A stretch of DNA of 64,000 nucleotides from Escherichia coli (GTDB lineage: Bacteria; Pseudomonadota; Gammaproteobacteria; Enterobacterales; Enterobacteriaceae): NCBI RefSeq assembly GCF_045037415.1, contig NZ_CP173440.1. One strand, written 5' to 3'. A program made the position numbers. Below, piece after piece: positions 27,001 through 33,000 of the stretch (its first letter is position 1; every line of letters begins with the position of its first letter).

Positions 27001-30000
27001 CCCCACGAAGAGAAGGATGACAACCCGTCCAGCTTATTCTGCACCCTATTTAACGTTTGATTTTGTCGGCTCTTCTGAGGCTGTAGAAATACTGCTTAAC
27101 CATGCCCATGTTGGCGTTGGTTATGACTTTTTCTCTGCAGCTAATGGAGAGTTTAACAATGTGACAATTCTTCCTCTCGATATCGACACGAGTATATCCA
27201 ACGAGGGTATGGCATTGCGTCCGGTACCTGTTAATTCGGGTCTGAATGGTATCAAAGGAGTATCACCACTTATTCCTCCCTATTTCGTTGGTGAAAAGCT
27301 AAACATTGTCCACCCAGCACCAGTTCGTACTCAATTGATTTCTTCTTTATTGCGAGGCTAATTTCATGAGAACTTTAAACTTCAACGGTAAAATTTCGAC
27401 TCTGGAACCACTGACTGTAACAGTAAAAAATGCGGTCTCAACTTCCGGCCATCGCTTGCCTCGTAACGGTGGATTCAATGCAGCCCCGTACTTTCCAGGT
27501 ACCAGCATTCGGGGAACTCTTCGTCATGCTGCGCATAAGGTCATTGTCGATCGTGTGGGCCTTAATGCAGACGGAAAATCACCTTTCGACCTGGCAGAAC
27601 ATTTCATGCTGGCCCAGGGGGTGGATATCAATGGTGAAGCCGAAACCTTCGCGCCAGGTGAAATCAATGCTGGTGCTGAACTACGTAGCAAAAACCCGTT
27701 AATCAGCTTGTTTGGTCGTTGGGGATTAAGCGGCAAAGTTGGTATAGGGAATGCTATCCCGGATGGTGATAACCAGTGGGGGATGTTTGGTGGGGGTGCC
27801 CGCTCAATTATGTTTCAGCGTGACGAAAGTCTGATGGAGTTTCTTGAGACAGACCAGGTTGATCGTCTGGAACGCCTGCTCGAGGAACAGGCTGAGGCAA
27901 GTGTGGATATCTCTCAGATCAAAACAGAGCAGGATGCACTCAAAAAGGCGATGAAGTCGGCTGATAAAGACACCAAAGCTGAGCTTCAAATCAAAGTACG
28001 GGAGCTCGATGAAAAAATTCAGGCCCGCAAAGATCAGAAGCAGGAATCTCGCGAGTCAATTCGCCGCCCGATTGACCCGTATGAAGCGTTTATCACCGGC
28101 GCAGAACTCAGCCATCGCATGAGTATTAAAAATGCGACTGATGAGGAAGCAGGGCTTTTCATTTCTGCATTAATCCGCTTTGCAGCCGAACCACGTTTTG
28201 GCGGTCATGCGAATCATAACTGCGGTCTGGTGGAGGCTCACTGGACAGTTACGACCTGGAAGCCGGGTGAACTGGTACCAGTTACACTTGGAGAAATCGT
28301 CATCACACCGAATGGTGTTGAGATTACCGGGGACGAGTTGTTTGCTATGGTAAAGGCATTCAATGAAAATCAATCTTTTGATTTCACTGCCCGCTAACTC
28401 CAAAAGCTGGTGGATTTTAGTGGCGCTATTTAATATTTTATAATCAACCGGTTATTTTTAGAGTATTCCCCCCGTGTGCGGGGGTTATCGGCAACCTCAA
28501 TTCCTAATGGCTGTCTAAGGAAAGTATTCCCCCCGTGTGCGGGGGTTATCGGCAGGGTTTGCCCTTTTGCACCGCGCAGCGGTCGTATTCCCCCCGAGTG
28601 CGGGGGTTATCGGAGCAACGTTTCCGGATTATATGGCTGGAACGTGTATTCCCCCCGTGTGCGGGGGTTATCGGTGGTGCTCTCAACCGTCACCCGCTGG
28701 CTGGAAGTATTCCCCCCGTGTGCGGGGGTTATCGGTGGTGTTGTCCACGGTCACCCGCTGGCTGGAAGTATTCCCCCCGCATGCGGGGGTTATCGGGCAC
28801 CCTCACGGATACCTTTTGCACAGTGTTAGTATTCCCCCCGCATGCGGGGGTTATCGCCTTAGAGAAGCAAAAACCCCACCGAGGCAGGGGTATTCCCCCC
28901 GTGTGCGGGGGTTATCGGTTACTTTTTGGCAGTTGGTAAAACACTTTTGCGTATTCCCCCCGCATGCGGGGGTTATCGGCGAAAACGGCAACCTTCATAA
29001 AAACGTCTTTTGTATTCCCCCCGTGTGCGGGGGTTATCGGCCGAGATTGAGTAAAGCAAAGTAACGGCGGTGGTATTCCCCCCGCATGCGGGGGTTATCG
29101 GCAGCGTCTGAACGGACGAAACATCCCTGTTGAGTATTCCCCCGTCTGCGGGGGTTATCGGCGAGCGCTCTCCTGGTAAATCGGTAGCTCGGAGTATTCC
29201 CCCCGCATGCGGGGGTTATCGGGCTGGATTTCCGTCAGTTGGTCAGCTGCTGCTGTATTCCCCCCGTGAGCGGGGGTTATCGGTTCCGGACTCCTGTTTC
29301 CGGCAGTGGATTAAAGTATTCCCCCCGCATGCGGGGGTTAACGGCACTACCAGATCCGAATGGACACCCGTAATGAGTATTCCCCCCGCACGCGGGGGTA
29401 TCGACATAAAAACCGCAATGGTGGGGCTTTTGTTATGTGCCCCTACAAGCAGATGGGACTTTTTACAATCAAGGAAAGTTACTTTCTTCAGGATAACCCA
29501 CATTCTGTCAAATCTTGCAGGTTGCAATCAGCAAAGGCCTTACGTCGATAAATTCATGCCTTGAGCTGGTAAGGAAGTATGACGTTATAACTCTGCATTT
29601 CTGGTTGATTAAGGTAGGGCGGCATTCCTGCTTTAAAAACAATCAATAATTTTGAACGGTAGTCGTCTTGATCCCAACTGCTACCTGATGGACTAGGCAC
29701 CTGCAAAGATCCAATTTATACTGGTTATATATACAGTGTGCGCCGGGAACCGGTTAGAGATCAAGGGGTGAAAGTCCCCGACCATTGAAGGACCAGCAAT
29801 CCACAAGGTCCCCGAGTCATGCGTTGCATACCGCGAGGTATGGGGCGAAGCGTTGACAGGGGTGTTGACAGGCCAGCCATTGAGCCACGAAATGTATATT
29901 AAATTACCGGGTGCCGACGTTGTACTGTTAACGGAAGGCAACATCATAGGGTGCGATACTGCGAGTGCCACATGGACCCGGCGGGGTCTGAGACCCTGGC

Positions 30001-33000
30001 ATGTCAATACGATCTCTACGCGGGAACCGGGAGATCTCCCCTCTGACCATCTGCCAGTGTCGGAGATGGCCCGCACCGGGAAGACGAGGAGTCATAGCCG
30101 GTGATGTACGGAGAGGAGAAGTCGGACTCGCTCATAGTAGCGGCGAAGCAGGCGAACAACCCGAAAGGAGCGGAGTCAGTGGAGCGAAGGAGCGGGGCCA
30201 AGGGGAACGCGGAACAGCCACACATGCGCCGGACACAGAGCCGGGAAAGCATGTCACAGAGGCTGTCACGCGTGCGGGAAGCTGCGAAGCAGCGGAAGAA
30301 AGAACGGTTTACAGCATTGTTCCACCTGCTGACAGTCGAAGCACTGGAAGCCGCATTCCTCTCCCTGAGCAGGAAAGCGGCCGCCGGAGTGGATGGCATC
30401 AGGTGGATGGACTACGCCGGAAACATGAAGAACAACATAACAGATCTGCACCGGAGGCTACATCAGGGCAGCTACAGGGCGCAGCCCGGCAGGCGTCACT
30501 ACATCCCAAAAGCGGATGGAAAACAACGCCCGCTCGGCATCGCCTCGCTGGAGGACAAGATCGTCCAGTATGCGCTGGTGAAAATCCTGAACGCAGTCTA
30601 TGAAAACGACTTTATGGGGTTCTCATACGGGTTCAGACCCGGGCGAAGCCAGCACGATGCACTGGACGCACTGGCCACAGGGCTGGTACGCACTAACGTA
30701 AACTGGGTACTGGATGCCGACATCAGTCAGTTCTTCGACAGGGTGAGCCACGAATGGCTGATCAGGTTCACAGAGCATCGGATCGGCGACCGGAGGGTAA
30801 TCAGGCTCATACGTAAGTGGCTCACAGCCGGGACGTCGGAGGAGGGTCAATGGCGAGCAACGGAGGAAGGCACCCCACAGGGTGCGGTCATCTCACCGCT
30901 GCTGGCAAACATATACCTCCACTACGTCTTCGATCTGTGGGCGCATCAGTGGCGACGTCGCTATGCCACAGGCAATGTGGTAATGGTCAGATACGCCGAT
31001 GACATCGTCATCGGGTTCGACAAACGATACGATGCCCGGCGCTTCCGTATAGCCATGCAGCGCAGACTGAGGGAGTTCGGACTCACGGTTCACCCGGAGA
31101 AAACCCGTCTGATGGAGTTCGGCCGCTTCGCTGCCGAAAACCGTGCCATCAGGGGAAAAGGCAAACCAGAAACGTTCAACTTCCTCGGGTTCACGCACAT
31201 CAGCGGGAAAGATCGCAACGGCAGGTTCATGCTGATACGAAAGACCCGCCGGGATCGGATGACGGCAACTCTGAAAGCCATCAAAGACGGTCTGCGAAGG
31301 CGCTGGCATTACTCAATCCCCGAACAGGGAAAATGGCTCAGGAGAGTGGTTCAGGGATACCTGAACTATCACTCGGTACCGGGCAACTTCCCCACCATGC
31401 AGAAGTTCAGGACACACGTAACAAACCTCTGGCGCCGGGCGCTCAGGCGCAGGAGCCAGAAGGATGATACGACCTGGACGAAAGCAAACAAACTGGCAGC
31501 CGCATGGCTACCAAGGGTTCGGGTTCTTCATCCATGGCCTGTGGAGCGGTTCACCGCCAGACACCCGAGGCAGGAGCCCGGTGCGTAAATCGCGCACGCC
31601 GGGATCTGTGCGGGGGGTATCCGGTAACGGGTATCCCTACCGCGACGTTTTTAAGTGATCGGAGGTTGCGCCTATGTTCTTAATTCCAATGGAAAATCCT
31701 GAGAAAATCGCCATCCCTTTATTTCTCGAGCGGTGTGCAGCTGGCTTCCCCAGCCCTGCCCAGGATTATACTTCCAGTGAGCTAGACCTGAACGATTATT
31801 GCATCAGGCATCCATCCGCAACATATTTCGTGCGAGCTCAGGGAAACAGCATGCAGGATGTCGGTATGCGTGATGGAGATTTGCTGGTGGTGGACCGTTC
31901 TCTGCGTCCTCAACATCGCGATATCGTGATCGCCGAGGTGGACGGCGGCTTCACTGTTAAACAGCTCCAGACCACTCCCAGACTGGCCCTGTTGCCTATG
32001 AACAATGCTTATTCACCAATTTACCCAGACCCCGATGAACTGACAATTTTTGGCGTGGTGACTCATTGGGTTCATCGTGCCCGGGGTAATCTGTAATGTA
32101 TGCTCTGGCGGATGTGAACAGCTTTTATTGCAGTGTTGAGAAATGCTTCAGACCCGATTTACGCGATAAACCAGTGGTCGTCCTTTCTAACAACGACGGC
32201 TGCGTTATAGCTCGTTGTAAACTGGCCAAAAAATTCGGCATTCCTATGGGTTTACCCTGGTTTAAGTTGCGTGAGCAGCGCTTCCCGGAGCCCGTGATTG
32301 CCTTCTCCAGTAACTACGAGCTGTATGCCAGCATGAGCGCCAGAGTACATTTCTGCCTGGAGGAATTATCATCCCGTGTCGAAGAGTATTCCATCGATGA
32401 GTCTTTTATTTGGGCTGGTGGGATTGATAACTGCATGACGTTTGAGGAATACGGACATCAGCTAAGGGATCATGTTTTCCGCTGCACTGGACTGACGATA
32501 GGGGTAGGCCTGGCCCCTACAAAAACCCTTGCGAAAGCCTGCCAGTATTCCAGTAAGACCTGGCCCCAGTTCGGAGGGGTACTCGCACTGACTGCAGGCC
32601 AGCGTAATCGGATAGATAAGATGCTTTCTCTGATGCCGGTAGAGGAGGTGTGGGGGGTTGGTGGACGAACCACAAGTAAGCTTCATGCAATGGGCATAAC
32701 CACTGCGCTGGAGCTGGCTCGTACTAACCCTGCATTCATAAGACGAAACTTCACCGTAGTTCTTGAACGAACAGTGAGGGAACTACGGGGAGAAAGTTGT
32801 ATCGACCTGGAGGATGCCCCGCCACCAAAACAACAGATCATATGCAGCAGGAGCTTTGGGCAGCGTATAACAACGTATGAATCCATGCGGCAGGCAATTT
32901 GCCAGTATGCTGAACGTGCTGCGGAAAAATTGCGCCAGGAACGTCAATACTGCGGTCAGGTATCAGTTTTCATAAAAACCTCGCCTTTTTCAAAACATGA

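Follow-up and report, generated by a model that had tools for sequence, protein, structure and literature searches.

Three target specificities were recognised for bacterial group II introns in a 2015 review, namely homing sites, terminators and attC sites (PMC4424553). RmInt1, an intron of class D whose intron-encoded protein (IEP) lacks an endonuclease (En) domain (an En-minus intron) and whose target is ISRm2011-2, spreads to multiple copies of this repeated target and is thought to be primed at replication forks, as described in two papers (PMC1802570, PMC4424553). Ll.LtrB resides in the relaxase gene of conjugative elements, where its presence and splicing modulate the function of the host element (PMC6003770). 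Copies of a further intron, Kl.pn.I5, have been reported in plasmid pKPN3 and in the chromosome of strain MGH 78578, at sites given only as intergenic with a conserved intron-binding site (IBS) (PMC3522654); neither "LexA" nor "SOS" occurs in the text of that report, and no class is stated for Kl.pn.I5 in the papers examined on this intron. Here, an intact copy is described in 64,000 nucleotides of Escherichia coli DNA (contig NZ_CP173440.1, assembly GCF_045037415.1; this whole stretch is referred to as the window), where it lies at the edge of the LexA operator (SOS box) of a umuDC operon, coding for DNA polymerase V (Pol V). Comparison with other copies indicates that the natural homing site of Kl.pn.I5 is very probably the LexA operator itself, which adds to the published account of the same element the SOS box as homing site, its occupation at many unrelated genes and insertion in both orientations. 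Full-text literature searches (covering open papers) returned no description of a group II intron targeting SOS or LexA boxes.

The operator of the window is a 20-bp box (TACTGGTTATATATACAGT followed by G; 29719-29738, + strand), read off the sequence and predicted to bind LexA, with its CTG-N10-CAG core at 29721-29736; it is the single exact match to TACTG-N10-CAGT within the 64 kb. It is a palindrome of the TACTG-N10-CAGTA type with an AT-rich centre (TACTGGTTATATATACAGTG), lies 35 nt 5' of umuD in the empty allele and overlaps the candidate promoter of an SOS operon, the same placement as that of the boxes of E. coli chromosomal umuDC, tisB, sbmC and dinI. The intron occupies 29738-31646 (+ strand, 1909 nt), from GTGCG to ...CCGCGAC (CCCUACCGCGAC), and base 20 of the box is also the first base of the intron (G, 29738), a position that holds a G in the empty allele as well. 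Its 3' exon (31647-33367, + strand) consists of a leader, umuD and umuC, all intact. The ribosome-binding site (RBS) of umuD, GGAGG, is read at 31661-31665, the ATG (31674) stands 27 nt past the intron end, and the open reading frame (ORF) of umuD (31674-32096; NCBIfam PRK10276, Pfam Peptidase_S24) is overlapped by that of umuC (32096-33367; NCBIfam PRK03609), both on the + strand, giving the order of a Pol V operon, with the S24 autoprotease UmuD ahead of the Y-family polymerase UmuC. The coordinates proposed in the initial annotation for the box core, both intron ends, the RBS and the start codon all hold on re-reading, as does the common orientation of intron and operon.

Intron-free alleles, with which a comparison had been suggested, were sought with a query in which 29500-29737 was joined to 31647-31900 and searched against plasmids. 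The joined flanks were covered over at least 80% in 144 plasmid records, and in NZ_CP079139.1 (IncHI1B/IncFIB), which has the same Csf2-umuD neighbourhood, they match in one piece with 99.8% identity. The allele of this plasmid reads ...ATATACAGT up to the junction and GTTTTTAAG... after it (further into the 3' side, GTTTTTAAGTGATCGGAGG). Because the empty allele reads straight across the junction, 29738-31646 is a precise insertion of 1909 nt and the box existed without the intron. The junction is exactly the one predicted from the window, with the intron at the last base of a box that is intact in the intron-free alleles, and the compact layout of operator, RBS and umuD expected upon excision is what these alleles contain.

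The IEP of the window is identical to the protein annotated as WP_004178082.1 in locus L001 (loci are cited by L numbers). This accession recurs in the annotation of the K. pneumoniae plasmid pK245, which holds the reference copy of Kl.pn.I5 in the bacterial group II intron database and where the element is 1909 nt long, and in that of pKPN3 (MGH 78578) at the published coordinates of Kl.pn.I5-1, 119263-121172, with which the fetched copy coincides (length 1909-1910 nt; PMC3522654, Table S3). Since pK245 and the published pKPN3 position share this LtrA accession, the element of the window is the catalogued mobile intron Kl.pn.I5, as judged from sequence identity. It is present in 4,420 of the 72,556 plasmids of PLSDB, 3,871 of them from Klebsiella, with about 5,300 plasmid copies in total, and in 218 of 5,426 complete E. 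coli genomes, where it occupies 273 places, 45 of them chromosomal, with up to six per chromosome. Near-identical copies (99.6-100%) are found at more than 20 distinct sites, an indirect sign that the intron may splice itself and retrohome.

The flanks were read from four sources (plasmid loci L001-L003, one genome per species, E. coli chromosomes and metagenome contigs), those of plasmids being samples of the ~5,300 copies, and yielded about 30 distinct 5' flanks. Wherever the 5' flank of a copy of Kl.pn.I5 (99.4-100%) or of its ~92% variant is readable, the intron stands right after a CTG-N10-CAGT box or what is recognisably left of one, and the integration point of Kl.pn.I5 is always between box positions 19 and 20. 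The 36 full-length plasmid copies sampled all align at least 12 nt into the box, and those outside the window locus still align over 12-28 nt 5' of the intron, into the box; on E. coli chromosomes, eight contexts have the intron at the box. The sequence of the flanks beyond the box is unrelated between contexts. Repeated in ~30 independent contexts, placement at the box edge is far beyond chance.

The genes next to the occupied boxes were named by Pfam (UmuD/UmuC, SbmC/GyrI, cloacin-type colicin, DnaE2-type polymerase and a radical SAM protein), NCBIfam (DinI) and record annotation (tisB, chromosomal umuDC, sbmC and an S24 peptidase). At least four types of umuDC operon and, in addition, E. 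coli chromosomal umuDC are occupied, in sense and antisense: the sense insertions comprise those of the window, of a second plasmid umuDC (L002) and of E. coli chromosomal umuDC (L088), and the antisense ones those of the IncFIB(K)/pKPN3 (L003, L093) and IncFII(K)/IncR/pK245 (L001, L007, L032) operons. Insertions are also in sense at sbmC (L006, L016, L092), at a dinI-like gene (L005, L143) and at a cloacin-type colicin (L012, L023), and in antisense at the repressor gene of a prophage, coding for an S24 peptidase (L085). Other copies lie in the tisB-ilvB intergenic region (L087, L089 and probably L019) and at several boxes without an assigned gene (L021, L086, L090, L116, L164; mostly sense). 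The umuDC insertion, presented in the initial annotation as a single event, is instead one case of a lineage-wide preference for the LexA operators of many genes in both orientations. Junction queries on complete E. coli genomes, which accounted for 24 of the 45 chromosomal places, found the umuDC box occupied in 13 genomes, that of tisB in 4 and that of sbmC in 7, and the same three boxes are intron-free in thousands of E. coli chromosomes. Single strains hold several of these insertions, which indicates that the intron disperses among SOS operators within a genome.

Among 16 curated sites, positions -16, -15, -12, -11 and -5 to -1 of the 5' exon are invariant (2 bits in the logo), -17 is C in 15, and at +1, where the 3' exon begins, 14 sites have A and the other two G. 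A search for pairings with the flanks, as had been proposed, showed that the right half-site can be read by the intron RNA: exon-binding site 1 (EBS1, ACUGU, 29924-29928, + strand), in the loop of a hairpin at 29913-29936, is complementary to IBS1 (ACAGT, 29733-29737, + strand; exon -5 to -1) in five of five positions at all 16 sites. In an alignment of domain I (DI) of the relatives, the EBS1 loop is complementary to the last five or six exon bases in every lineage. The EBS1/IBS1 pairs are ACUGU/ACAGU in Kl.pn.I5, UACUGU/ACAGUA in L025, UGUCAC/GUGACA in L039, CUGUUG/CAACAG in L031, CUGACC/GGUCAG in L042, GUUUCC/GGAGAC in L027, UUACUC/GAGUAG in L029 and UACGGU/ACCGUA in L099, and six different loop-exon pairs stay complementary among the relatives. 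This covariation between lineages with different targets indicates that the right half-site is read by RNA.

The TA-rich centre of the box is likely read via a second pairing. A candidate EBS2 (UGUAUA, 29893-29898, + strand), in an internal loop 5' of the EBS1 hairpin, matches a candidate IBS2 (TATATA, 29726-29731, + strand; exon -12 to -7, TATRYR) in six of six positions at 11 of the 16 sites, including TATGCA and TATACA through G-C and G-U pairs, and in five of six at the other five (four TATAAA, one TAAATA), all of which have an A at -6 that can extend EBS1. In L027, the homologous loop, AGAUGUC, is complementary over all 7 nt to the exon of that intron, GACAUCU. The U beside EBS1 (U29923) is able to pair with the base at +1, which is A or G at all 16 sites, and is a candidate for the reading of the first 3' exon base, with no covariation of this delta/EBS3 pair seen in the relatives. 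For the CTG of the left half (-17 to -15), no RNA partner was found in the intron; an AUUCAG:CUGGAU pairing was dropped, having been seen in L025 alone. This invariant CTG would most likely be contacted by the IEP, as in other homing introns, and for cDNA synthesis the En-less protein would presumably take its primers from the nascent strands of replication forks, like the proteins of other En-minus introns.

Since the box is palindromic, the orientation of insertion is set by the half-site that offers the full ACAGT/A (the slash marks the integration point) together with a pairing centre. Sense insertions are those of the window, E. coli chromosomal umuDC, sbmC, dinI and colicin, and antisense ones those of the IncFII(K), IncR and IncFIB(K) umuDC operons. 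In the umuD sense, the box of the pKpQIL type ends in ...CATAACCAGT followed by A, with a mismatch in IBS1 and a poor IBS2, and on the other strand it reads TATGCATACAGT followed by A, with full pairing. Two observations in the window, each a single one, fit a contact of the IEP with the left-half CTG. A site within umuC (33197-33209, + strand; TATGCAAACAGT followed by G) offers a perfect potential IBS2, IBS1 and +1 with no CTG at -17 to -15, and it is empty at a distance of 1.5 kb from the intron, a hint that RNA pairing alone does not suffice. Likewise empty is the right half (17822-17834) of another SOS-type box in which an insertion sequence (IS) has shifted the left half by 1.3 kb.

A lineage ~71% identical at the DNA level, found in metagenome-assembled genomes (MAGs) of Burkholderiales type and others, also sits at SOS boxes. 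Its members follow TACTGGATATATTCACAGTA 5' of a radical SAM gene (L025), AGCTGTATATTTATCCAGTA 5' of a DnaE2-type polymerase (L026), TACTGTATGAAAATACAGTA (L096) and GCTGTACATAAATACAGTA (L100). These four integrate after box position 20 (CAGTA/), and Kl.pn.I5 after position 19 (CAGT/A); the lineage shares the loop UACUGU, and the splice-site register is shifted by one base on the same operator. Relatives that are 70% identical or less follow unrelated sequences, such as TTACGGTGACA in eight copies of one alphaproteobacterial MAG. As these more distant relatives sit at unrelated sequences, homing to SOS boxes is a derived trait of a sub-clade.

The element has the attributes of a mobile group II intron: a 5' GUGCG, a match to Rfam RF02005 (group-II-D1D4-6; 29771-29996, 186.6 bits, E=1e-54), domains V (DV) and VI (DVI), a reverse transcriptase (RT)/maturase, a covarying EBS1-IBS1 and precise intron-free alleles. 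No match to RF00029, the DV/DVI family, was returned by Rfam in the intron even at E<=1, and these domains were therefore defined from an alignment of the last 105 nt of the window intron and 11 relatives (12 sequences). DV (31574-31606, + strand, 33 nt) has an AGC triad and an AC bulge, carries the stop codon of the IEP in its loop, shows compensatory changes in its helices and is conserved across the 12 sequences, as is DVI (31610-31646, + strand), in which the branch point is a bulged A (31639) that precedes the 3' splice site (...GAC) by 7 nt. The LtrA RT/maturase (30101-31588, + strand) is 495 aa long with an intact YADD motif at residue 298, and its match to TIGR04416, the model of group II RT/maturases, scores 376 bits, above the cut-off of 300. 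A Pfam scan gave RVT_1 alone, with no HNH or En domain, in agreement with the earlier reading of an RT without an obvious endonuclease domain. Outside the ORF, the ribozyme amounts to ~450 nt. Assignment to a class was not achieved by protein comparison, in which PDB sequence matches to RTs of IIC, IIB and IIA introns are nearly tied (8e-43 to 8e-36).

Some observations count against parts of this picture, in which the operator is the recognised site. At three occupied boxes the left half is degenerate (GTG in L016 and L135, CAG in L120), and metagenome flanks can be chimeric. Conservation of the left-half CTG would also arise from the constraint on LexA boxes alone. Support for EBS2 is moderate: UGUAUA would be complementary to every box with a TA-rich centre, and no convincing EBS2 pairing was found in the L025, L039, L031 and L042 lineages, where it was sought. 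At three further occupied boxes (L092, L119, L154) the left half has been displaced by an IS; neither these boxes nor the degenerate ones contradict the rule.

Among the alternatives, the initial annotation had raised a structure-guided targeting like that of class C introns, in which the palindromic box would be recognised as a single-stranded DNA hairpin, as terminators and attC sites are by IIC introns, with only a short IBS1. The palindromic target, the IEP without an En domain, the compact ribozyme, the short EBS1-IBS1 (5-6 bp) and the conservation of a left-half CTG that has no RNA partner would all suit it. However, the single-stranded hairpins of five occupied boxes have folding energies of -1.3 to -4.0 kcal/mol, no better than shuffled sequences (the box of the window, -1.3 kcal/mol, z = 0.11), and EBS pairing would face competition from such a hairpin, whose 3' arm contains IBS1 and the candidate IBS2. 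The intron makes efficient use of boxes whose centre is asymmetric (GGTTAT...), a candidate EBS2 exists, EBS1 covaries with the exon, relatives 70% identical or less that share the RNA architecture have non-palindromic homing sites, and no terminator was found beside the insertion, where a IIC stem-loop would be expected. IIC introns carry a CGC catalytic triad in DV; in the 12 aligned introns the triad is AGC (GAGCC...). Class C-like targeting is thus unlikely.

A second alternative would dispense with recognition of the whole box: the intron would insert at any ACAGT/A preceded by a TA-rich IBS2, and only copies at SOS boxes would survive, these places being non-coding, tolerated and inducible. 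The RNA-read site is worth about 20 bits by our own estimate, so many chance sites would exist per genome, and the three occupied sites with imperfect left halves, as well as the lack of insertions seen in essential SOS promoters such as that of recA, fit such loose targeting followed by selection. Nevertheless, no copy lies outside a box-like sequence in the ~30 flanks, which include very recent plasmid copies (99.8-100%), although plasmids offer many non-coding or dispensable sites, and the perfect IBS site in the dispensable umuC of the same plasmid is empty. The commonest insertions are antisense and probably kill the umuDC promoters, and selection for harmlessness is therefore not obviously the filter. 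This explanation is considered very unlikely. A coincidental single insertion, or a box travelling with the intron in a larger mobile unit, has nothing in its favour beyond the single-locus view and can be regarded as refuted, given that the same boxes are intron-free in 144 plasmids (window locus) and in thousands of E. coli chromosomes (umuDC, tisB, sbmC) and that the flanks beyond the box are unrelated between contexts. Recognition of the LexA operator itself is, consequently, the explanation retained below.

In the window, a candidate umuDC promoter lies at 29694-29722 (+ strand), with a -35 TAGGCA (29694-29699), a 17-nt spacer and a -10 TATACT (29717-29722) that overlaps the left half of the SOS box; the match to the consensus is 9/12. 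TAGGCA-17-TATACT is the only sigma70-like match in occupied and empty alleles, and L002 has an equivalent arrangement. The predicted start, ~7 nt past the -10 at about 29729, would give a 5' exon of ~9 nt, containing IBS1 and half of IBS2, which bears out the earlier remark that the 5' exon would be under 10 nt if TATACT is the -10. Short as it is, such an exon would in principle suffice to specify the 5' splice site. A start at or after 29733 would produce a transcript without IBS1, unable to splice, and the promoter call, a 9/12 consensus match, leaves room for this, which counts against an intron that is expressed from the box and spliced.

Transcripts in sense from the box would contain ~9 nt of 5' exon, then the intron with its RT and then umuDC, and the Pol V mRNA would have to be transcribed through, or spliced free of, an intron of 1.9 kb. 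The dependence of Pol V expression on splicing that was initially suspected is not needed: because the intron is in the 5' untranslated region (UTR) and the RBS and ORF of umuD are intact 3' of it, UmuD translation is not strictly splicing-dependent. Since the operator is almost untouched, position 20 being G before and after insertion, transcription into the intron and its RT should stay under LexA control. SOS-inducible expression of the intron is plausible for sense insertions, and intron expression and mobility as a whole may be gated by the SOS response, a proposal with an even chance at the very best. In antisense contexts, the -10/-35 predicted for the empty site straddles the junction (e.g., TAT/ACT in L001), and no replacement promoter was predicted in the occupied alleles, from which it follows that antisense-occupied plasmid umuDC operons, the commonest plasmid arrangements, are probably silenced.

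Directly 5' of the SOS box of the window lies a remnant of a type IV CRISPR-Cas system (27366-29400, + strand), with an ORF homologous to the one annotated as Csf2 in L004. This Csf2-like ORF is followed by an array in which repeats of ~29 nt recur every 61 nt (28646-28796 flagged by TRF; the repeat-derived ORF pattern spans ~28476-29400), and read-through from the array could be another source of intron transcription. Further downstream, an Rfam match to the sok antitoxin RNA (96.9 bits; 35297-35472, + strand) marks a plasmid stability locus of the hok/sok type.

The second SOS-type box of the window has in its centre an ISKox3-like IS of the ISL3 family (17822-19172, - strand; transposase ORF 17864-19084, NF033550). 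This box was originally TGCTGTATAAATAAACAGTG, and the insertion duplicated 8 bp, ATAAATAA. The same IS end (ggggaagaccc) adjoins the right half of the sbmC box (L092:160-1500; duplication ATATAAAA), as well as that of the E. coli umuDC box and of another box (L119, L154), and these boxes, like that of sbmC, carry the intron. From these positions, the ISKox3-like element seems to be a second mobile element preferring the centres of SOS boxes. Two further CTG-N10-CAG palindromes in the window, at 40310-40329 (TGCTGTATACAGCAACAGTA), which resembles a weak SOS box, and at 12751-12770 (CACTGTATACCTGGTCAGT), are both unoccupied and without a full IBS match.

Introns with 99.6-100% identity and enterobacterial SOS-gene flanks (dinI, sbmC, colicin, umuD) were also found in contigs labelled as Streptomyces, Actinomadura, Kitasatospora, Microbacterium, Pedobacter, Arthrobacter, Flammeovirga, Haemophilus and Eggerthellaceae (L005, L006, L008, L010, L011, L012, L014, L022, L023), most of them of ~2 kb, and these copies are almost certainly contamination of the assemblies with enterobacterial plasmids. 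In L011, L101, L122, L139, L173 and others, 5' and 3' flanks come from different contexts, as when a pKPN3-type 5' exon is joined to an sbmC-type or pKpQIL-type 3' exon, either because intron copies at different SOS boxes have recombined or because the assemblies are chimeric across the repeat. Some copies are interrupted or flanked by ISs (ISCfr12/ISL3, IS3, IS91, IS5), as in a plasmid (NZ_CP072809.1) and in three E. coli copies, and it seems that occupied boxes are prone to being rearranged further. Insertion of Tn4401 into a group II intron is discussed in PMC4471558.

Kl.pn.I5 resembles IIC introns functionally and mechanistically En-minus homing introns such as RmInt1, in which EBS1/EBS2 pairing is combined with contacts made by the protein. 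With the former it shares the lack of En, a compact RNA, a short EBS1-IBS1, a dispersed, non-coding palindromic motif as target and many targets per genome, but IIC introns recognise a stem-loop and have no IBS2, whereas Kl.pn.I5 relies on sequence pairing with a candidate EBS2 and has an AGC triad and weak hairpins at its targets. RmInt1 is similar in being En-minus with recognition through EBS1, EBS2 and the distal 5' exon, but its repeated target is an IS and that of Kl.pn.I5 a host operator common to a regulon. Ll.LtrB is likewise a plasmid-borne group II intron affecting the function of its host element; unlike Kl.pn.I5, which lies in 5' UTRs or splits promoters, it interrupts a coding sequence and its splicing is obligatory. 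The effect of Kl.pn.I5 would accordingly fall on transcription and operator context, not on the restoration of a reading frame.

It is conceivable, though we hold it to be rather doubtful, that Kl.pn.I5, like its relatives, is a damage-gated retroelement, in which cleavage of LexA would derepress transcription of the intron and its RT from the invaded SOS promoters and, by clearing all other SOS boxes of the cell, lay open the homing sites, just when stalled forks or gaps would prime the En-less RT, with Pol V operons being rewired or silenced on ~6% of sequenced plasmids. If so, a transcription-factor operator would be a fourth target specificity beside homing sites, terminators and attC sites. 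A regulon operator is a target niche of which no description was found in the literature searched, with many conserved, non-coding and horizontally shared sites per cell. The idea that LexA cleavage gates both mobility and target accessibility is open to simple assays. The short programmable site read by RNA, together with a CTG presumably read by protein, would offer a compact En-minus model for target recognition. For annotation, an "ltrA" gene beside umuD, sbmC, tisB or dinI is non-random and marks an SOS operator. Finally, this retroelement stands under or beside the SOS switch on thousands of clinical resistance and virulence plasmids of Klebsiella and E. coli, at plasmid Pol V promoters, and its presence and orientation may alter the damage-induced mutagenesis that such plasmids bring about.

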